A DNA stretch of 64,000 nt from Dictyostelium discoideum (taxonomy: Eukaryota). Of this stretch, positions 1,277 to 21,968 are shown in pieces. How positions within the stretch are numbered: position 1 is the stretch's first letter; each line of letters opens with the position of its first letter. Made by a program: the position numbers and the translations under genes. Location of the stretch: the NCBI GenBank assembly GCA_000004695.1, contig CM000151.3, forward strand, positions 7,648,001 through 7,712,000, in the 5' to 3' direction. The notes below the pieces were generated by a model. It did no database searches and was not told the DNA's origin. It saw nothing but the letters and a program-made list of their open reading frames with translations.

Positions 1277-2932
1277 ATGTATGACCTAAACACCAATAAA
1301 TATGGGTTTGGTACACCATCCCAGCAATCACAACCACAACAATTACAACAACAACAATTGCAACAACAACAATTACTACAACAATCACAATTATTACAAC
1401 CACAATATTTTGAAAAACAACAAATTGCAGATTACATTGACAAAACATTTGAAAAGAAGATAAAAGAATGGAAAACATGGACATTTTCATCAGTTTTCAT
1501 AATATTCTTACCACTATTATTATTTCAAATGTTATTTTTATCATTTATGTTTTCACCATCACCAAAGTCAACATCAACATCAATGATTTCAGTGATATTA
1601 AGAACAACTGGTAACCATATATTTGGAATAATATTATATGTTATTGGTCAATTGATATTAGGTGCATCATATCACTCAATTTGTAGTGTTTATAGACAAG
1701 TACCAGCCTCATTCAAAGAGCAATTCACTGTATTATCAATACCACATTTAATATTCATTACTTTAAATACATTAATTCAACCATTATTTTTATATTTCTT
1801 TTTCAGCATACCATTGAACAAATTTTCATTATCTTCAATAATTGAAGTTTGTTATCAAGATTTCTCTGAAACAATTCCAGTGTATGTATTTTTTTATCAT
1901 TATTAAATATATATATATAAATATAAATTAATATTAATTTTAATATTCTTATCATTTTTTTTTTTTATTAAAGAGCAAAATGTGAACTTGAATATAATTT
2001 ATTCTTTTATTTATTTGTTTTATCATGTATTGGATTAGTTTGTTCAGGTTTATTTAGAATTTATTCGAATCAAGAATTTGTTTATTCATTTCCAAAAGCA
2101 AATATACCAACATTCATTCAAATTAAATCTATGCTTTACAATAACTTTTGGATAAGTTTTTACACTTCATTTTATTTATTCTTTTTAGGTTCATTTTTAT
2201 TAGGTATTTTGTTTTTGTAAGTATTATTAATTCATAATTATTATATAAATAAATAAATAAATAAATTAATAAAATTAGATAAAAATTTACTAATATTAAT
2301 AAATTATTTTTAGAATTTTATTTAAAACATTTACAATTCAAATTTTAATATTTTCAATTAAATTATGGTGTTTTACATTTGCAATTATTTTCCAAAATTT
2401 AACAAGAAATAGATTATTTGAAATTTATTTTACACGTGGTCTTAGATTTACATTGGAAACCTTTAATAGTGTTACATTTGATTCTTCAAATAGTCAACAA
2501 CAACAACAACAACAACAACAACCACAACAACAACAACAACAACAACAACAAACATTATTTGATAATAAACCAATCATTGAAAATGGTAGTATCTTCTTAT
2601 TGAAAGCAATCTATAGTTGTGATCCATTAATTCAAGCATTGGGTTGGAAAGATTTCCTTCATCTATCAAAATACTCTCAACCAAGAAGAACTTATCTATA
2701 TAGAGAAATGAGTGAACTTTTAGATCAACCTTCAATTTTAAAAATTATTCGTCAATATGAAGATCAAATTAATGATTTATCTTTAAAATTATCTGTATGT
2801 ATTTATATTATTGATTATTTTAATTACTTTAAATTTTTAACTTTATTTTCATTTAAATTATTTAGTGTCCAAGAGAATATTATGAAAGTTTAAATAGTGG
2901 CAATATTAAAAAAGAAGATGATAAAAATAAAA

Positions 2933-3004
<72 letters not shown>

Positions 3005-3691
3005 GTAATAATAATAATAATTCAATAATTTTTAAAATTGGTAATAATATTGAAAAAATTATAAAGAAAACATTAAATTTTATAAGTGGTGTAAAGTTTG
3101 ATTATAATTTATATGAATGTGAAATTAGACAAGCATTATCAAATACACAATCTATACTATGGTCAATTGAATCAATTGGATCATTAATTGTATCAGCACA
3201 AATAAATGATGATAGAGAAACTATGGAACTTTTGCATAGATATCAAATTCCTCAAAAGTTTTTAATACCATTATTCCAAATTTTAGCATTGATAGATCAA
3301 TTGGAAAAAGATTTATCTCATCAAATCGAATTAGATAAATTCACAATCAATAGAGATTATTACTTTTTAAAATCTTTCTCAAATTTAATTGAACCACCTT
3401 TAAATTGTTTAGGAATTTTAAAAACTTCAAGACCTCATTTTAGAATTTTTAAACTTGGTAAGTTTTTTTTTTTTTTTATTTATTCAATTTTTTAATTATC
3501 TTTTTCACAGTACCTAATTATTACAATTATTATTATTATTATTATTATTATTTCATTATTTAGTTGGTAAAAATATGATTAGTCAAGTACTTGAAACTAT
3601 TGGTCATCAAATATCAGACATTTCGTTCCCTTATGATTTAAGAACAACTTTGAATAGTTACAGAAATGGTGAATTTAGTATTTATCAATAA
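1277..3691 (+). CDS. Uncharacterised multi-pass membrane protein with poly-Q/poly-N tracts. 5 exons: 1277..1881, 1974..2216, 2314..2794, 2866..3467, 3564..3691
   Basis: ORFs 1277-1906, 2453-2893 and 3223-3495 join in frame through short AT-rich GT..AG introns (gtatgt...aaag, gtaagt...tttag). Exon 1 and 2 contain several hydrophobic helices. Stop TAA at 3689-3691. No family recognised. Confidence 0.55.
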
Positions 3692-7047: not shown

Positions 7048-10000
7048 TTAATGTTTCCAAGATGGTTTATCATCTTCGTCGTAATCGTCCTCATCATCGT
7101 CGTCGTCGTCATCATTTGCGTTGTTATTAATGTTGCTTCCGGATTTTAAGATAGTTTCTGTTGGAATTTCTTCATAGTCTTGTTCTTCTTCGTCTTGATT
7201 TTCATTATTATTATTATTATTATTATCGTCATTCATGTTATCAGCAGCATCTTCATCTTGATTATCATAAGCATCTTCATCAAATTCATCATCGCTACTC
7301 TTTTCTTTTATAGTTTGTTTAAATTGAGATTGGAGTTGTTGTTTTTGTTGAAGTTGTTTTGCTAGTATTTGTTGTTGTTGTTGTTGTAGTTTTTGTTGTA
7401 ATTGTGATAGCTGTTGTTGTGGTAGTTGTGGTAGTTGTTGTTTACTGAATTGAGGTAATAGTTGTTTTTCTTTATCTTGAACCCACTGTATATTTAAACT
7501 CTTTCCTTTATAAACTTTGGCAACAACAAACACCCTTTCAGCGGATTGTCTTTTACCAAATTTAATTTGAATTGAATTCTCCTCTTGAATAACTGATTCT
7601 ATATCGGTGAATAATTGTTTCAATAATGACTCATTTTTAAATTCTAAAGGAGGATCAATAATTTGAATTGTAGTGGTTGTATTATCAATTAGTATACTAT
7701 TATTCTTTGGTTTCTTTGCTATTATTGGTTTTTGTGCCACTAATCTTGGTGGTAACTTTTTAAAATTAGGTTTATTTGGTATTATAGGAGTAGTAGTAGT
7801 TGTGGTTGTAGGTATGGAGGTAATAGTAGTAGTAGCTGTTGCAGCAGAGGTTATAGTATTTGGGTCAATACCTAAACTCTTTGCTTCAGATTCTAATTCT
7901 TTTAATGTATTTGATAATTGTTCAATATTACCACTACCAGGTGCACCTTCAATTTCAATAGAGGTAGATGTTGGTGTAGTTGGTGTAGTTGGTGTTGTTG
8001 GTGTAGTTGGTGTAGTTGGCATTGGTGTAGTTGGTGTTGATATATTATTAAGGGTAGTAATTGTTGTTGATGTTGATGGTTGTGGTGTTGATGTTGAAGT
8101 TGAAGTTGATGGTGGTATTAAAACTGTTGATGCTGTTGTTGTTGTTGTTGTTGTTGTTGTTGCTGCTGCTGAAGTAGTAGAATTTAATTGATTTAATTGA
8201 TTTGTAGTTTGTTGATCTTTTTGTAAAGATTCAGTGATTGACTTTGTTAATTGTTTAATTGATTCTTTTATTGCATCTTTTTCTTTTTCATCTTTACAGA
8301 TTGCCAATTTAGTGAGTAATTGCTTTTGAAGATCTAATTGTTGATTTCTTAATTCCTCTCTAGATTTAACGACTAAAACTAGTTCTTTCTTCTTTTCAGA
8401 TTGTTTTTCCAATAGTTTTTTTCTATCCTCTAGCTTCTTTAACAATTGCTGTTCACGAATTTTCATTAAATCTTGATCACGTTTCTCTTTCTCTTCTTTC
8501 TTCTTTTGAATTTGTTCTTGTTTCTCTTGTTGTTCTTCAAATTTAGTTTTCTTTGCAGTTGCATGATCGAATGAATCCTCCCAAAACAATTTAATGAAAC
8601 GATTATTCATTATTGCTTCTGGTGATTTCATAGCTTTCATAGCTTCAGAGTTATTACTAAATTCAATCATAGATTTTGCTGTTGATAATTTCGTTATATT
8701 TGTAATAGTTCCAAACTTTGAGAAATGTTCTCTTATCTCTTCTTCAATATTTTGTTGTAATGGTATGTTGGTAATAACCAATTTTGTTGATTCTGAACTT
8801 GGGCAATTTGATGATGTTTTAATATTATCATATTGTTTATTACCTCTATTATTGTTATTATTGTTATTTTGGAAATCATTAAATTCTTCATCATCTTCAT
8901 TATTATAATTATTGCTGTTATTATTATTATTAATATTATTATTGTTATTATTATTAATATTATTATTGTTATTATTATTATTATTGTTATTATAAATATT
9001 ATTATTGTTATTATTATTATTAATATTAAAATCCATATTATTGAAGTCCATATTATTATTATTGTTGTTATTATTATGATTATTGAAATCCATTTGATTT
9101 TGATTCATTTGACCTATATACATTTGATTTTGATCCATCATTGAGAATGATGGTTGATTATTATTTATGTTATTATTATTATTATTATTGTTATTATTAA
9201 ATGATGAGAAAATCATTTGATTTGGCGATATATTAGCATTGTCGAATGGGAATGGTGGAGAATTATTGTCACTAACATTATTGACTGGTATATTAAAATT
9301 ATTATTGTTATTGTTATTATTATTATCATCATCAAACCTATTGTTAAATTTCCTAAAATTATTATTATTATTATTATCAAAATCATTAAAATTACCACCA
9401 TTATACATATATCCATTATTATTATTATTGTTATTGTTATTGTTCATGTTTTGATTATTGTTATTGATCATATCAATATTATTATTATTATTATTGTTAT
9501 TATTATTATTATTATTTAATAAGCTAAGATCATGTGAGAAATTACAACTATCTCCACGTGTACAAATACCATTCTTTTCAATGTATTTACATATTCTTGT
9601 ACTCTTCGGGAACTTTTTAAAACTATTATTATTATTATTGTTATTAAACTCATCATTTGTCGATCTTCTTTTAAATCTGTTTGCACCACTACCATTTCTA
9701 TATGTGTTGTTACCTGTCATATTATTATTGTTATTATTATTATTATTGTTGTTGTTGTTGTTATTATTATTATTATTATTAAATTCATCAAGTGGTTGGG
9801 GTGAATTTGATCTTGATCTTGATCTTTTTCTTGTATGAGTTGTAAGTGATGATGAGGATGGAGAAATAGATCTTTCTCTTTCTCTTTCTCTCTCTCTCTC
9901 TCTATATCTATTAGAGGAGGAGGAGGAAGAAGAAGAATTGTTATTATAGTCTCTATCATTATGATCTCTTTCTCTACTATTTCTATTTCTATCTCTATCT

Positions 10001-10539
10001 CTATCCCTTTCACGATCTCTTTCTCTTTCACGATCTCTTTCTCTGTCCTTATTTCTATCCCTTTCACGATCTCTTTCTCTTTCACGATCTCTGTCTCTAT
10101 CTCTGTCTCTCTCTCTTTCAAGCCTGTCCCTATCTCTGTCTCTTTCTCTGTCTCTTTCTCTTTCTCTTTCTCTTTCACCTCTATCTCTATCACTTCTATC
10201 TCTATTTTCTCTTTCTCTTTCTCTCTCTCTTTCTCTACTATCTCTATTTGTAATTGTAATATTACTAGGTGATATTATTGGTGAAGTGGTTGATTTTGAG
10301 AAATAATTTGTTGAATTTAATTTTGAAACTAGAGTATTGATGAATGATTTTGTATTTTCATGTAAAAAATCCTCCAAATCTTTAGAGAATGTTTCCTCTA
10401 AATCCTTTCTTGTTTGAAATCCATTTGATAGAAATTCTTTAATGTAATCCGATAAGGATGATGGATCAAATTCACATATTGGATCTAAGGTTTGAATTAA
10501 AAACTTACTAAATTCTGGATCCTCTGTCAATTCTACCAT
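7048..10539 (-). CDS. RBM26/RBM27-like RNA-binding protein (N-terminal PWI-like domain, RD/RE/RS dipeptide tracts, C3H1 zinc finger, RRM, coiled coil, poly-Q)
   Basis: 1163-aa ORF. CCCH finger is [20 protein letters not shown] (C-x8-C-x5-C-x3-H). RRM is [30 protein letters not shown]...MIEFS. Long (RE)n/(RD)n stretch encoded by (TC)n/(GA)n at about 9880-10240. The architecture is typical of RBM26/27. Confidence 0.8.
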
Positions 10540-11397: not shown

Positions 11398-13861
11398 GTT
11401 TTATAATATATTATATAAAATGAGAGGAAATTTTACAATTGAAGCTAATGGAAATGGTACAAAACCAATTATATTATTTACACCCCATGAACTTTCAGTG
11501 AAATTTCTATTCCTTGGGTCAACTATTGTATCGGATAAGAGTACAAAGAATTTTGAATACATTTGAGGTGAGAATTTATTGAATTTAGTGATAAAAGCAT
11601 GTTTGATCGCATCAACTAAAACTTCAGAACCCCAAACAGTACCAACCACTGTTAACATATTAATTGCAAAATCCCAAGATAAATCCCAATTTAAATCTGA
11701 AAGGTTTTGAAAAATAATAATTGTAAGGAAAATAAATGCTTGGAATCTCTCTACAATATCACTACATGAAATTTGAAATAAATTCTCCTTTTCAAATCTT
11801 TTAAATACTGATCCTTTTAATTCAACAAATTGATTTGATATCATCAATGTTAACAATGCATTATTATATGAATTAATTGCAACATTTAATGTAATAACCT
11901 GTGAAAATAATACTAATGAATGTAAACCTAAAATAAAATTAAAAAAAAAAAAAAAAAAAAAAAGTATTATTAATATAATAAATATTTATTATATTTAGAA
12001 AAAGAAAAAAAAAAAAAAAAAAAAAAACTTACAAACATATCCTGTTGCAACCAAAAGATGAGTGAATGGACCTAAAATTCTAGTTTCATTCCTTTGTTTT
12101 GGTACTAACCCATCCTGTCTATTTCTATTTGAACTTGTAAGACTGAATGACATCCAATATAGAGAATCAAAAATATCTTGACCAAAACTACAACATAGTT
12201 TATCCAATACCTCCAAGACATTGTATATCACGTATAGTTTAATGACTGCTTGACCTCTAATATAATGATAAAGCATTGATGAATCAATAAAATTTAAAAA
12301 TACAAAACATGTTACCCAAATAAATCCTCTAAATAAATCAAATATTTGATTGGTTGTTAATTTATTTCTATATAAAAAAAAAAAAAAAAAAAAAAAAATA
12401 AGGTTAGTATTATTGTTTAAACTTATTTTTAAAAAAGGAGTAGTATAACTAAAATAAATAATAATACTTTTTAGAAAAAGGTGAAATTAAAAATTTTAAA
12501 AATGATAAAAAGAATCGGATTGGTAAAAATGTAAATAAAAATAAAAATGAATCGAAACAAACCAAAAACCCAAATGAAATTAATTTTTCAAGTTCCCATG
12601 GCACATGAACAAAATTATAAACTTGTTCTCTCTTTAATGTATCATTTGCTTCATTTGATAAATATCCACCATGAATTTCATCATAAAGGTATGTTTTAAA
12701 TGACCATAATGATGTTGATTTCTTTTTTGGTTCAACTTTTATTGATGTTGTTGTTGCTGTTGTTGTTGTTGCTGTTGTTGCTGTTGTTGTTGTTGTTGTA
12801 GTTGTTGCTGCTGCGGTCATTGTTATTGATGATGTGGTGGTATTTCCTGATGAGGATTGTTCAATACCATTGTTTTTATCCTCATTAATATCTGTTAGAT
12901 TATTATTATTTTTGCTGTTGTTGTTGTTATTATTATCATTATTATCATTATTATTACTTTGAGGAGTTGTTTGTATATTTTCAGTACTTTTAACTAACAA
13001 TGGGGTAGAGGGTATTTGAGATTTAGTATTACTTGCTGTTGATGAGGTTGAGTTTATTGGATCATTTATTAAAGTACCCAAATTTGGGAAAGGAATCGGA
13101 GAATTTGATTTTTGAGTTGAAATGGTTCTAGATGCTAATACTGGTGTTTTTTCATATGAAAATGGTTGTTGTGATGATGGTTGTTGTGTTGTTTGAGTTT
13201 GTGGTTGTGGTTGTGGTTGAGTTTGTTGATCAATAATTTTTGGTGTTATAGGTCTAAAAATTGAATTTTGTTGTTGTTGTTGTTGCAGTTGTTGTTGAAT
13301 TTGTTGAATTTGTTGTTGTAATTGTTGTAATTGTTGTTGTTGTAAATATAATTGTTGTTGTTGTTGTTGCTGTTGTTGTAATTGATTTTTATTTAAAAGT
13401 ATATTAATTAATTCTTGATTATCATTGGTACAATTGATATTATTCTCGAGGATACCGTTAATATTTAAAATGTTTTCCTTATTGTTAATTAATTTATTAA
13501 TGATTGGTGGTGAAACTGCAATTGGTGATGTCATAACACAAGTTGAATCAATTACAGAATTTAAATCAAAACTATCCTTTAAATTACCACTACTATTACT
13601 ATTACTATTTGTTATATGATTACCACTACTAACATTATTACTATTATTATTATTATTGTTATTAATAGTATTATTATTATTAATATTAATTGGTATTTTT
13701 GGTGACATTGGAATTATAGATTCATTTTTTACAATATTATCTAATAAATCTTGTTCTTCTTGTGTAATGTTTGGTTTTATTGGTATTAATTGAAGTGGTA
13801 ATAGTTCATTATTATTTGTACTAGTCGGAATTGATTCATAAAGAATGTTTTTATCTTCCAT
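11398..13861 (-). CDS. TAPT1 (transmembrane anterior-posterior transformation 1 / DUF747)-like membrane protein. Exons 13861..12468, 12367..12034, 11927..11398
   Basis: Exon 1 ends ...VPWELEKLISFGFLVCFDSFLFLFTFLPIRF. Exon 2 reads MLYHYIRGQAVIKLYVIYNVLEVLDKLCCSFGQDI. Exon 3 reads TLNVAINSYNNALLTLMISNQFVELKGSVFKRFEKENLF. These align closely with human TAPT1 (RELEKLMFFGIFLCLDAFLYVFTLLPLR / MYHLIRGQSVIKLYIIYNMLEVADRLFSSFGQDI / TLNVAFNSHNKSLLTIMMSNNFVEIKGSVFKKFEKNNLF). Introns are gtatta..tatag and gtaagt..ttttag. The long N-terminal region is low-complexity Q/N/T-rich. Confidence 0.75.
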
Positions 13862-13960
13862 ATTGGAATTCTCTAAAATATTATTAATAATTTTTAAAAC
13901 TATGAGAAGATATAAAAATTATGTGTGTGTGTTTATTATTATGTGTTTTAATATTCAAAG

Positions 13961-13994
<34 letters not shown>

Positions 13995-14226
13995 AAAAAA
14001 AAACAAAAAAAAAAAAAAAATTAAAAAAAAAAGGCAAAAAAATTAAAAAAAAAAAAGGAAAAAAAATCTTTACCCCATTCCCATATTTATATTAATATTT
14101 TATTATTTTATAAAATACTATATTTGCTAAATTTTTTTGAAATCTTGGAAAACCTAAAAAAAAAAAGTTTTTATTTATTTTTGGTTTTTTTATATTATTT
14201 TTTTTTTTTTTGTTTTTTTTTTTTTT

Positions 14227-15307
14227 TTAATTTTCATTTGGATTAACATAAGTTTCACCTTCACTATCAGAATCCAAATTATTATTATTATTATTATTAT
14301 TTGATTTTTCATCGATTTTCATTTCAATTGCATTGATGATAGTATGAGGAGTATTTGCTATACCTTCAGCAGTTTTACCAGCCATTTCAATGATACCAGA
14401 GGCTGGTTTAACGATTGCACCCATTAAACCTTTACCAACACCTTTAAAGAAACCTTTTGCTTTATTATTTTCATCTTCACGTAAACCTTTGATTGGTTCA
14501 GTTACTATACCAGTGACACCCAAATATAAATTTTTACTTAAACTAATTGTACCTTGAGCTATACCTTCGAAAATATGAGATGCCTCTCTCTCTTTGACTT
14601 GATCGGCATCTGAGAAACCCATTAGATCTTCATGATCACCATGGAACACTGTTGCAGGTGTGTTTCTTAAACCTTCGGCTGTTTTAATTAAAAATCCAGA
14701 TCCACCTTTAACAGGTGAAGTTACAGCACCGAGTAACCCCTTACCAACACCTTTAAAGAATCCTTTGACTTTATTATCTTGGTTATCGACAATGTTTATA
14801 ATTGGTTCTGCAACGATACCCGACAAACCAGTGGCAATGTTTGTACCAAATAAAATTGCACCTTCAACTATACCTTGAACTATATGAACTGCTTCTTTCT
14901 CCTCACCATCGAATTGACTCTGAATACTACTATCATCCTCTTCACCCTCTTCCAATGCACATGAATTACTCTTATATTTACCACTTTTATTCTTTCTATT
15001 AGAATATGGATTTTTAAATATTGTACCACCACCACCACTTTCTGATCCAACTTCATCCTCATCCTCCTCCTCCTCTTCCTCCTCTTCAAAAATTTGTTCA
15101 ACTAAACCACTATCTAAATTCTTTACCATAATTGAATTCTCTGGTTTCTTCTTTTTATTTGATTGTGGTGTTTTTGGTAATGATTTATTTGGTGGTTTTG
15201 GTTTATTATCTATTTTATTTTCTACATTTTCAATTTCTTTTTCAGTTTCAGATGATGATGAATAAAATACACCACCTTCACTCTTACTATTACTATTATC
15301 ATCATTT

Positions 15308-15362
<55 letters not shown>

Positions 15363-16043
15363 CATCATCATTGTCATCATCGTCGTCATAATCATAAACA
15401 CTTTTACTTTTATTATTTTTATTTTTATTACCATTATTTAAAATATGTTCTTCTTCATCACTATCACCAATGATTTTCTCTTTTTTATAAATTTTCTTTC
15501 TATTTAATTCTGAATTTGAACTATTTTTTAATTTCTTTTTTTCATTTTTATTATTATTATTATTTGTTGTGGAATTTGATTCTGATGATCTTGATGGTGA
15601 AGGTGATGTTTGTTGTTGTGGTTTTATATTTGTAGATGATGATCTTGATAATGATGGTGATGGTAGAGGTGATGGTGTGGATGGTGTATGTAAATCATTT
15701 ACATCAATTAAATTATTACTATTACTATTATTACTATTTATACCAATTGTGAATGGGTCATCCTCTTCATGAATTAAATTATCTAAATCAATCTTTTCCG
15801 TTATTTTAGAATCTATATCACTTTGAATTGAATTTTTATCTCTAATAAAATAAGGTGAATCGGTTTTCATTGGACTTTTTAATTCAATATTTTCAACAAT
15901 ATTCCCACCAATACTGTTACTTTTTTTAAGATTATTTGATTTTTTTAATATGTCTTGAATTTTATTATCATATTCGTCATCTTCATCATCATCATCCTCT
16001 TCATCTCTTCCAATAATTACATCTATTATTTTTTTAAAATTTG

Positions 16044-16075
<32 letters not shown>

Positions 16076-16303
16076 CAATGTTAGTGTTGGTTTTTTTTTT
16101 TTTTTTTCTAATGATTAAAAAAATAAATCTTAGTTACCTTTATTAACTAAACCTCTTATGTGTAAAGAATCTTCTTGATTATCATCTTGAGAATGTTTTT
16201 CTTTATCACACTTTTTACAAAAATAAGCATCACATGCACAACAATAAATTGTAACAAGTTTGTCATGTTGTTGACATTTTAATTCGGATATATTTAATTT
16301 CAT
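14227..16303 (-). CDS. Novel protein: N-terminal B-box-type zinc finger plus two VPS13/ATG2 C-terminal (ATG_C-like) motif repeats. Exons 16303..16138 and 16022..14227
   Basis: Exon 1 is MKLNISELKCQQHDKLVTIYCCACDAYFCKKCDKEKH, which fits the B-box pattern C-x2-H-x7-C-x7-C-x2-C-x5-H. A GTAACT...ATAG intron (phase 1) joins it in frame to the 547-aa ORF. The C-terminal half carries two repeats: GIVAEPI..KGFFKGVGKGLLGAVTSPVKGGSGFLIKTAEGLRNTP and GIVTEPIKG..KGFFKGVGKGLMGAIVKPASGIIEMAGKTAEGIANTP. These resemble the conserved C-terminal segment of VPS13/ATG2. Confidence 0.65.
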
Positions 16304-16505
16304 TTATTTAGTGATTTTAAAAAAAATAAAAGAAAAAAATAAAAAAAAAAAATAAAAAAATGTTTTATTTTAATATTATTATTATTACAAATTTAAATAA
16401 ATTTAAATTAATTTTTTTAAAAAAAAAAAAATTATAATGTGAAAAAAAAAACAAAAAAATATTTTGTGGATATTATTATTAATTCTGTTTTATGCGATAT
16501 TTATT

Positions 16506-16545
<40 letters not shown>

Positions 16546-16994
16546 CAAACAAAAAAAAAAAAAAAATCAATATTGGTTTTATATTTTTTTTATTTTTATT
16601 TTTTTTTTTTTTTTTTTTTTCAACGTCGACAACCCGTTTAAGATTTCAAAAACAGAGTGATGTATTTAGATTAAATTTGTTTTATTTTAAAAATTTTTTT
16701 TTGCTATAAATATATTTTTAATATTTTTTATTTTATTAAAATTTTTTATTTTTTTGTGGTGGGGGTGTGGAGAAATTATCCAATGAGGAAATAAACTTTT
16801 ATTATTTTTTTTTTTTAAATTTATTTTTTTAATCTTTTTTTTTTTTTTTTTTATTTTTTTTTACTCTTTTAAATTTTTAAATAATAAATAAAACAACATA
16901 AAAAATACATAGCAATAAAAAGAAATAAAAGTAAAAAAAAAAAAAAATATATGAACTATAATTATTAAAAAAAAAAAAAAAAAAAAAAAAATTA

Positions 16995-20592: not shown

Positions 20593-21968
20593 ATGGGAAA
20601 TAATGATTTTAATGATGAAGAGAAACCTTTTATTGATAAAGAAACACATGATGAAATTGTACCAAAAAAAATTCCATTATCACAACATAAACATTTAAAA
20701 CAAATTTTTTTAATGTTTTTAATTTATTCATTGATGGTAATGAGCTCATTTTTATATGGTTTATATATTCCAGTTGTTTTTACAAATTATGTTAAAATTA
20801 AATATCCATCACTTAGTGCTGATGAAATTTCATCAAAAGCATCATATTATAAATCTTTTTCTGATGGTTTGCCATATCTTTCAATGTTTTTACTCGGTCC
20901 ATTATTTGGTGTTTTATCAGATAGGTATGCAATAAAAGTAATATTAAAAAATATTTTAAAATAATTATTTTTATTAATTTTTTTTTTAAATAGATTTGGT
21001 AGAAAACCAATTTTATTTGGTAGTGTTGCATTACTTATAATTGATATGATATCATGTTATATTACAGTTAGAACAAATAATTTATATTATTTTTATTTTT
21101 TTCATTCAATTGCTGGAGTTTGTAATTCAGTAGCTGGAGCTGCCCATTCATTTATTTCAGATTTATCAGATGAATCACATATTCCAATATTATATTCATT
21201 ATTGGGAGCATCATTAGGATGTGGAATATTATTTGGACCAAGTACATATGTATTTACATCAAAATCAAGTATACCATATTTAACATTATATATTTCAATT
21301 GCTATTGTTGCAAGTACTTTAATATTAATTCCATTTCTTAAAGAAAGTTTAGAAACTGCTAAACAAGAAAATAAAATTACAGTTGATATTAAAAATACTT
21401 CAAATCCATTTAAATTAATTAAAAACCTGTTCACTAAATCTGGTACATATTTAAGTTTGGTACTTTTATTATATATTTCAATCTCTTATACAAGCCAAGA
21501 CCTTTTATCAACTTATTTCTATTATTTAGAATTAGTATATGGTTGGAATGCAAGTGATTGTGGTTTATTTTTTGGGGCCTTAGGTGGCATTATAATGATT
21601 TGGGGTGTTTTTTTAATTCCATTTTTATTAAAATTTTATTGTAAGTTTTTATGAATTCCTGATATTTGCAAAACACATAAAAAATAATAATAATAATAAA
21701 ATAACAACTAACAATTTATTTATTATTTATTTATTTATTAAAAAAAAAAAAAAAAAAAAAAGCTGAAAGAAAAATTATATCATTAGGATTTTCAATTAGC
21801 ATTGTGGCACATACATTTTTTGTACTTTCAGGAAAGAGTCAATATATATATATTGTTGGTGGTGTATTTGTAGCATTTGTACCAAATAACATATCATTAC
21901 TTCAAGCTGTAATTTCAAGATCTACTTCAAGTGAACTTCAAGGAACAGTTTTAACAGGTAATTATTAG

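Follow-up and report, generated by a model that had tools for sequence, protein, structure and literature searches.

A two-exon gene of Dictyostelium discoideum, located on the minus strand at positions 14227 to 16303 of the window (the 64,000-nucleotide (nt) stretch of contig CM000151.3 analysed here, assembly GCA_000004695.1, positions 7,648,001 to 7,712,000), encodes a protein of 653 amino acids (aa) in which an N-terminal B-box zinc finger is linked by a long acidic spacer to two C-terminal helical hairpins that are related, by profile comparison, to the ATG2_C region of the lipid-transfer proteins VPS13A and VPS13C. We consider it probable that this is a peripheral-membrane protein whose hairpins sense or bind lipid droplets or other membranes with packing defects, and whose acidic spacer projects a partner-recruiting B-box. 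The pairing of a B-box with a VPS13-type segment in one small stand-alone protein had been proposed from the sequence of the window (hereafter the original prediction). This architecture was confirmed and is absent from the literature searched, in which we found no paper on the family and in which neither stand-alone proteins of B-box and ATG_C nor a B-box within an appendage of glucosyltransferases are described. The architecture is undescribed but conserved; it is assembled from known modules and involves no new domain type or mechanism. As set out below, the original prediction is partly supported overall.

The hairpins are the part of the protein that relates it to VPS13. Repeat 1 (aa 431-516; 14641..14898, minus strand; core KGFFKGVGKGLLGA, ending in ...AEGLRNTP) and repeat 2 (aa 534-619; 14332..14589, minus strand; core KGFFKGVGKGLMGA, ending in ...AEGIANTP) are 49% identical to one another over 86 aa (E=3e-30), and the GFFKGVGKG... 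motif hardly varies in an alignment of 60 sequences. Both copies of the VPS13 C-terminal-type motif that the original prediction had recognised are present, but at residues of about 431-619 rather than about 330-560, so that they had been placed about 70-100 residues too early; likewise, the protein described as '0.6-kb' is in fact a 653-aa product of a 1.96-kb coding sequence (CDS). When the window protein was compared with all Protein Data Bank (PDB) chain sequences using phmmer, only VPS13A (9yg5_B, E=5e-14) and VPS13C (9yqp_B, E=3e-11) were recovered. A profile of eight family members matched the same two proteins with E=1.5e-22 and E=4.6e-22, respectively, and aligned colinearly over both hairpins for ~155 residues (VPS13C 3431-3586); the significant profile match to VPS13 on which the original prediction hinged was therefore obtained (family profile E about 1e-22). 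The likeness to the VPS13 ATG2_C region (human VPS13A 2866-3029, VPS13C about 3431-3586) extends to two antiparallel hairpins of about 75-85 aa, a common GFFKGxGKGLxGAxxKPxxG core and an amphipathic character, akin to ATG_C as described earlier, namely an antiparallel pair of helices, about 75 aa long, that occurs twice (PMC7613979). The two proteins differ in how the motif is distributed, since it is strong only in the second hairpin of VPS13, whereas both repeats of the window protein are of the second-hairpin type: in 27 of 27 full-length VPS13 representatives both aligned best to that same second hairpin with its GFFKGxGKG core (40-68 bits for repeat 2, 19-48 bits for repeat 1, compared to 8 bits or less for the first VPS13 hairpin). 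As both repeats map to the second VPS13 hairpin, the window protein has the canonical form of the element twice, whereas VPS13 has it once in canonical and once in degenerate form.

The match of the tail to a VPS13/ATG2 C-terminal family of Pfam, which had also been expected, did not materialise: no match was found when the C-terminal 207 aa were scanned at E<=10. This null result is explained by the boundaries of the models and not by a lack of homology. PF25037 (VPS13_C) covers the PH-like part that follows the hairpin motif (in true VPS13 fragments, directly after the hairpins), while the ATG_C stretch exists in current Pfam only inside the full-length ATG2 model PF13329, at positions about 1600-1690. 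PF13329 was itself not matched by the window protein at E<=10, although the orthologue P0004 aligned to its positions 1614-1683 below threshold (E=0.13), and ATG2 chains were absent among the PDB matches of the family profile at E<=1. According to the literature, the ATG_C of ATG2 is a homologue of the VPS13 region with lipid droplets and autophagic membranes as its targets (PMC7613979; 10.64898/2026.01.07.698282); unlike VPS13, ATG2 gave no direct sequence match to the window protein. We regard the homology of the tail to VPS13 as demonstrated at the level of sequence profiles. At the same time, Pfam reveals in the window protein none of the beta-groove bridge, Chorein_N, VAB, WWE and PH domains of VPS13; PF25036 and PF25037 were not matched, and the protein ends where VPS13 continues with PF25037. 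On this domain evidence, it is not a member of the VPS13 or bridge-like lipid-transfer family, with which it shares one module, and it should be unable to transfer lipids because the bridge and the accompanying domains are missing.

Previous work on VPS13 bears directly on what such hairpins might do. The ATG2_C motif of VPS13C is not visible in cryo-electron microscopy (cryo-EM) of soluble VPS13C, its deletion cuts liposome flotation by about 70%, and the isolated motif binds giant unilamellar vesicles only when these have diacylglycerol-induced packing defects (PMC13430412). The ATG2_C region is also not visible in the cryo-EM of VPS13A-XKR1, simulations place residues 2866-3029 of VPS13A inside the bilayer, and flotation drops when they are deleted (10.64898/2026.01.07.698282). 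In addition, a C-terminal VPS13A fragment that contains ATG_C is enriched on lipid droplets (PMC10911177). Whereas gene structure, domain identities, homology, conservation and distribution are shown by the present analysis, membrane binding, the target organelle and the partner of the B-box are matters of inference. The window protein would be a cytosolic, peripheral-membrane protein consisting of a B-box, a long acidic disordered spacer and a C-terminal hairpin pair, the latter homologous to the amphipathic helices by which VPS13 (and ATG2) is anchored, at its delivery end, to acceptor membranes. If they behave as in VPS13A and VPS13C, the hairpins in solution would be mobile or only loosely packed into a bundle, and their hydrophobic faces would insert into monolayers or bilayers with packing defects, such as those of lipid droplets and highly curved or damaged membranes. 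The B-box, presumably a module for protein-protein interaction or self-association or possibly one resembling ubiquitin ligases, would thereby be brought to those surfaces together with its bound partners. As it is without a lipid-transfer groove, the protein would serve in targeting or sensing and not as a transporter. Perilipin-type repeats and ALPS-type motifs, amphipathic helices rich in Gly, Ser, Thr and Lys that fold upon lipid surfaces with many defects, provide a functional analogy for the proposed action only, and no sequence relationship to them is claimed.

Structure prediction with AlphaFold2 (AF2) was in keeping with a pair of hairpins. A first model, of the deposited D. discoideum protein (P0001) from an alignment of 8 sequences, was poor (mean predicted local distance difference test (pLDDT) score of 42.5), whereas a second model, of the short orthologue P0008 from 60 sequences, was usable. 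Two helix-turn-helix hairpins were predicted in P0001 (H421-466/H471-506 and H526-569/H574-609), and paired helices in P0008 (H150-186/H188-222 and H247-280/H282-332), the second hairpin of the latter with a pLDDT of 80-93. The modelled layout matches that published for ATG_C (PMC7613979). The highest hydrophobic moments (muH) of the whole protein, calculated over 18-residue windows, lie in the repeats (0.45-0.55, with a net charge of up to +4), and NKAKGFFKGVGKGLMGAI, LMGAIVKPASGIIEMAGK and NKVKGFFKGVGKGLLGAV are among the top-scoring windows of the protein, with muH of 0.45-0.50.

The B-box (aa 8-50, LKCQQHDKLVTIYCCACDAYFCKKCDKEKHSQDDNQEDSLHIR; 16154..16282, minus strand) has eight putative zinc ligands (C10, H13, C21, C24, C29, C32, H37 and H48), whose spacing of C10-x2-H13-x7-C21-x2-C24-x4-C29-x2-C32-x4-H37-x10-H48 constitutes a full eight-ligand B-box pattern, as judged by the regular expression C-x2-H/C-x7-C-x2-C/D-x4-C-x2-C-x3-6-H-x2-10-H. 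In the pattern given by the original prediction the spacing before the first His is x5, but it is in fact x4. The expected match to Pfam zf-B_box (PF00643) was obtained when the N-terminal 64 residues (the exon-1 peptide and 9 residues of exon 2) were used as query (26.8 bits, E=6e-6; cut-off 24.1). Across 8 family members there is no variation at six of the eight ligands (C10, C21, C24, C29, H37 and H48) or at Y20, C22 and R50; in distant members, Asp takes the place of H13 and C32. The family profile matches the B-boxes of CONSTANS (E=0.002). In the AF2 model of P0008 the B-box (pLDDT 79-92) comprises strands 19-21, 26-28 and 50-52 and a helix at 30-38, and Foldseek paired it with the B-boxes of TRIM29 and CONSTANS with a probability of 0.95-0.96, though with E-values of 0.36-1.5 (root-mean-square deviation of 2.2-3.0 A for CONSTANS).

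In B-box pattern and, more tentatively, in predicted fold the window protein resembles the TRIM proteins, the plant CONSTANS/BBX proteins and Dictyostelium AreA (DDB_G0279871), the last of which is an interactor of Atg101 and so a precedent for a B-box protein in a membrane-trafficking pathway (PMC4554924). It differs from TRIM proteins by having neither RING nor coiled coil, and disordered low-complexity sequence after the B-box; from CONSTANS by having no CCT domain; and from AreA, which is a different gene, by having neither FNIP repeats nor DUF4559. We know of no B-box family described with ATG2_C hairpins. Assignments as a TRIM-like E3 ligase, a CONSTANS-like transcription factor or a VPS13 pseudogene fragment were considered and found no sequence support.

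That the B-box and the hairpins belong to one gene is indicated by the gene structure and by its conservation. Exon 1 (16138..16303; 166 nt; ATG at 16303..16301; aa 1-55 and the first base of codon 56) and exon 2 (14227..16022; 1796 nt including the TAA stop codon at 14229..14227; aa 56-653), both on the minus strand, flank a 115-nt, A/T-rich phase 1 intron (16023..16137, minus strand; GTAAC...AATAG). The two exons join in frame, as originally predicted, to a CDS of 1962 nt encoding 653 aa plus stop, whereas unspliced reading of exon 1 runs into a stop two codons past the exon end. The D. firmibasis orthologue has an intron of 191 nt at the identical position and in the same phase (nt 166, phase 1), and DNA identity to this species is 92% in exon 1, compared to 54% in the intron and ~61% in the flanks. 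In Polysphondylium violaceum a single exon contains Met1, the B-box, the linker and the beginning of repeat 1, up to residue 218, and the sole intron falls within repeat 1. A transcriptome contig of Ceratiomyxa fruticulosa contains a complete open reading frame (ORF) of 289 aa with both B-box and hairpins, and two environmental contigs of ~1 kb have B-box and hairpins in unbroken ORFs. The conserved intron position, the single-exon coverage in P. violaceum and the transcript and ORFs elsewhere together support exons 1 and 2 being one gene. Codon differences from D. firmibasis are 51 synonymous and 4 nonsynonymous in the hairpins and 10 synonymous and 3 nonsynonymous in the B-box, which places both domains under purifying selection. 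Taken together, these comparisons effectively rule out a pseudogene or a mis-joined gene model. Relative to the deposited D. discoideum protein (KAM9964395.1, i.e. P0001, 651 aa), the window protein differs mainly in how long the runs of Asn, Asp and Gln in its linker are, and in a few substitutions; the homopolymer-codon runs whose length differs from P0001 (15300-15390 and elsewhere in exon 2, minus strand) would fit a polymorphism in repeat length between strains.

When 1.84 billion representative proteins were searched exhaustively with the profile, 5359 were returned at E<=1e-3, only 22 of these at E<=1e-30. The top-ranked group consisted of orthologues sharing the architecture of the window protein, from Heterostelium album (PPL_12360), Cavenderia fasciculata (DFA_00130), Acytostelium subglobosum, Synstelium polycarpum, Tieghemostelium lacteum (DLAC_08349), P. 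violaceum, D. citrinum, D. firmibasis and Ceratiomyxa. The search for orthologues in other dictyostelids that the original prediction had advocated therefore turned them up in every genus sampled, and all are annotated as 'hypothetical' or as 'B box-type domain-containing protein'. Identity to D. citrinum is 93% in the B-box and 99% in the hairpins, and identity to P. violaceum is 50% and 63%, respectively, and conservation within the family is concentrated in these two parts.

Outside the family, the profile search points to B-box plus hairpin cassettes on sterol-glucosyltransferase-type enzymes and to hairpin-only proteins, not to VPS13, as the nearest relatives. P0130 from Ancoracysta twista (E=1e-41) and P0134 (E=3e-38) outranked all VPS13 proteins; in both, a C-terminal B-box-like zinc finger is followed by two hairpins, and these repeats score 67-87 bits against the hidden Markov model (HMM) of the family repeat. 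P0134 combines PX with GT28/UDPGT, and its zinc finger has the full C-x2-C...C-x2-C-x4-C-x2-C-x4-H-x7-H pattern. GT28 N-terminal and UDPGT/EryCIII-like C-terminal catalytic domains are present in P0130, P0134, P0315, P0317, P0363 and P0329. The original prediction had known the hairpin motif only from VPS13 and ATG2. Among 121 sterol-glucosyltransferase-type proteins (homologues retrieved with P0134 as query, P0273-P0391), 104 have one or two hairpins after the catalytic domain (e.g. P0134 aa 669-953, P0130 aa 538-818, P0320 aa 585-720 and P0329 aa 670-747), and the bearers come from oomycetes, chytrids, basidiomycetes, ascomycetes, Vitrella and, with a single enzyme, P0320, the amoebozoan Paramoeba aestuarina. 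An ATG_C-like region in fungal sterol glucosyltransferases has been noted before in a one-line remark (PMC7613979). In many protist glucosyltransferases the zinc finger lies between the catalytic domain and the hairpin; it was not found in the fungal members, e.g. Pyricularia P0329, and in a metagenomic subgroup of ~645 aa (P0363, P0360, P0345 and others) it stands alone at the end of the protein (Pfam zf-B_box E=1.2e-3).

The zinc fingers of the two groups recognise each other in reciprocal HMM searches (databases of 272-392 sequences): the family B-box HMM matches P0134 (E=2e-5), and the glucosyltransferase zinc-finger HMM matches the window protein (9e-5), P0004 (8e-7), P0010 (2e-5) and P0127 (3e-5). 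Given these matches, the identical order of the elements and the H-[IKR]-R ending common to the dictyostelid B-box and the glucosyltransferase zinc finger, the comparison supports a common B-box plus hairpin cassette. The protist enzymes share with the window protein the closest hairpins outside the family and a zinc finger directly before them; they differ from it in that the finger and the hairpins are about 15-40 residues apart, as opposed to a disordered gap of ~375 aa, and, according to Pfam, in having domains (glycosyltransferase, PX or SAM) of which the window protein has none. The unit would be an ancient cassette that, on the glucosyltransferases, most plausibly acts as a membrane-targeting or regulatory appendage. 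The hairpin also occurs apart from these enzymes, in environmental and protist proteins that consist of 2-6 tandem hairpins alone (P0128, P0129, P0131, P0132, P0138 and P0141), in proteins combining it with SAM (P0133, P0139 and P0145) or with SAM and RhoGAP (P0136), and in one with a zinc ribbon (P0137). As 2-6 tandem copies are found alone or with signalling domains, the ATG2_C-type hairpin has the appearance of a widely shuffled module.

These distributions raise the possibility, which we put forward tentatively and with some doubt, that the B-box and ATG2_C hairpin form a self-contained cassette of ancient origin that senses membrane surfaces, and that it occurs on its own in eumycetozoan amoebae and, in other protists, fused to sterol glucosyltransferases or to SAM or RhoGAP proteins. 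If so, the Dictyostelium protein would represent the first ATG2_C module that is isolated by nature and also amenable to genetics, and could show what ATG2_C recognises (lipid-packing defects, membranes that are stressed or sterol-modified, or else a scramblase, for instance Atg9) and in what way the neighbouring zinc finger controls or reports such binding. In VPS13 and ATG2, contact with the acceptor membrane is made by the ATG2_C helices, whose selectivity is debated, with lipid droplets, damaged lysosomes, mitochondria and ATG9A all under discussion. A small stand-alone protein with two copies would permit the module to be studied apart from a 3000-residue bridge, in a haploid model organism with good assays for lipid droplets, autophagy and membrane damage. 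The module is mobile in evolution, and its repeated pairing with a B-box and with sterol-glucosylating enzymes hints that this membrane-binding element may be connected with the biology of sterols or of stressed membranes, a connection on which the literature searched is silent.

Several observations weigh against a membrane-binding role for the window protein or against parts of the evidence for it. Repeat 1 is modelled with moderate confidence only (pLDDT 62-82), and conserved Pro and Gly lie inside the predicted helices, an uncommon trait in simple amphipathic helices. The packing of helix against helix in a soluble four-helix bundle could account just as well for the amphipathic pattern. 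To our knowledge, no ATG2_C region has a solved structure. With the whole protein as query PF00643 scored 22.4 bits (E=1.3e-4), slightly under the cut-off of 24.1, so that the expected Pfam match to the B-box held for the N-terminal peptide but not for the full-length protein. Finally, the similarity of the zinc-finger cassettes is expressed in modest E-values (1e-4 to 1e-7) from small local databases.

An alternative that we regard as rather unlikely, and that comes near to the suggestion made in the original prediction, is that the duplicated hairpins, being of the VPS13 'helix B' type, bind a partner of VPS13 or ATG2, e.g. Atg9, which is a scramblase, or a receptor on mitochondria or at the plasma membrane, which would make the protein an adaptor or a competitive regulator of VPS13/ATG2 docking. 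Deletion of helix B of human VPS13A (2991-3028) lowers co-immunoprecipitation of ATG9A by ~50%, and the same helix has been implicated in mitochondrial recruitment of VPS13A (PMC10911177). Helix B corresponds, by alignment and not residue by residue, to the GFFKGVGKG... segment, the stretch best conserved between VPS13 and the two repeats of the window protein. The mapping of ATG9A, however, reflects a partial effect of deletion constructs in which co-association on membranes was not excluded, and other work ascribes the role of this region to direct insertion into lipid (PMC13430412; 10.64898/2026.01.07.698282). Moreover, the nearest relatives of the hairpins are glucosyltransferase appendages and hairpin-only proteins, as would befit a generic membrane module and not an interface specific to VPS13.

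Less likely still is a soluble scaffold, in which the hairpins would form a stable four-helix bundle for protein interaction or oligomerisation without binding membranes and the B-box would be E3-like or related to nucleic acids or chromatin. In Foldseek searches of the PDB the hairpins as packed by AF2 did superpose, over about 170-185 columns, on generic four-helix bundles and on nothing else (chemoreceptor ligand-binding domains, a FAT domain and the talin rod), and the best matches of the B-box, CONSTANS and the TRIM ligases, belong to groups of transcription factors and ligases in which B-boxes are common. Yet every one of these fold matches was non-significant (E>=0.1, query TM 0.24-0.31), and the lack of a significant one is no surprise, given that VPS13 structures leave ATG2_C unresolved. 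In two cryo-EM studies, furthermore, the homologous region of VPS13 was disordered, and on its own the purified region aggregates (PMC13430412; 10.64898/2026.01.07.698282), unlike a stable bundle; a RING, a coiled coil, a CCT and a DNA-binding domain are all absent from the window protein. An annotation artefact, with the B-box exon and the downstream ORF being separate or the repeats a pseudogenised piece of a decaying VPS13, has next to no probability: the failure to find the exact 653-aa product in the protein collection searched is outweighed by the intron position and phase kept in D. firmibasis, the P. violaceum exon spanning the B-box through to repeat 1, the complete transcript and uninterrupted ORFs of other taxa, synonymous to nonsynonymous ratios of 51:4 (hairpins) and 10:3 (B-box), and intact orthologues throughout the dictyostelid genera sampled.

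Between the B-box and the hairpins lies the acidic, Asn-rich linker that the original prediction had described, with a net charge of -34, 17% Asn and 22% Asp plus Glu over aa 56-430 (~375 aa). Its Asn/Ser-rich low-complexity part (aa 57-406; 14971..16020, minus strand) is predicted to be disordered, and pLDDT in the P0001 model was below 50 across residues 86-434. Linker length is highly variable among orthologues (238-329 gap columns in the alignment). A search by eye for an FFAT or LIR motif in the linker gave no sequence support for either. Just upstream of repeat 1, a short acidic motif, SNSCALEEGEEDD (aa 407-419; 14932..14970, minus strand), is kept at 100% in D. citrinum and D. firmibasis, i.e. 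is identical in three Dictyostelium species. Motifs like SNSCALEEGEEDD are recognisable in all other dictyostelid orthologues, e.g. GTNSCALEEDEVDA and RSNTCGLEEGEEDN, and are not present in the Ceratiomyxa or environmental family members. The C-terminal tail (aa 620-653; 14227..14331, minus strand), made up of an Asn run and ...SDSEGETYVNPNEN before the stop codon, is conserved only within Dictyostelium sensu stricto, where it ends in a conserved SDSEGETYVNPN(E/D)N. The orthologues of Heterostelium, Cavenderia, Acytostelium and Synstelium (P0123-P0126) have an extra C-terminal motif, EYNxKWLExN...ISSxxF, that is missing from the orthologues of Dictyostelium sensu stricto.

With 22.6% G+C, the window is Dictyostelium-like in composition. 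Long poly(T)/poly(A) tracts are typical of Dictyostelium intergenic DNA, and tracts of more than 40 nt lie on both flanks of the gene, at 13960-14060 and 16500-16610. Directly downstream is an apparent multi-exon gene for a DUF747 (TAPT1-like) membrane protein (11401-13861, minus strand), with a PF05346 match on 11401-11856 (E=2e-51) and an N-terminal ORF rich in poly-Q, poly-N and poly-T (12449-13861). Further on, at 7048-10539 (minus strand), an ORF of 1163 aa with a CCCH zinc finger (PF00642/PF18044), a long Arg-Asp/Arg-Glu dipeptide tract and many Asn runs is probably a gene for an RNA-binding protein. On the other side, an ORF fragment at 21046-21654 (plus strand) matches the Major Facilitator Superfamily (MFS; PF07690, E=2e-11). 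No synteny was seen between the window locus and the P. violaceum locus; an FPN1/MFS gene does adjoin the P. violaceum orthologue, but on the opposite side and in a different orientation.

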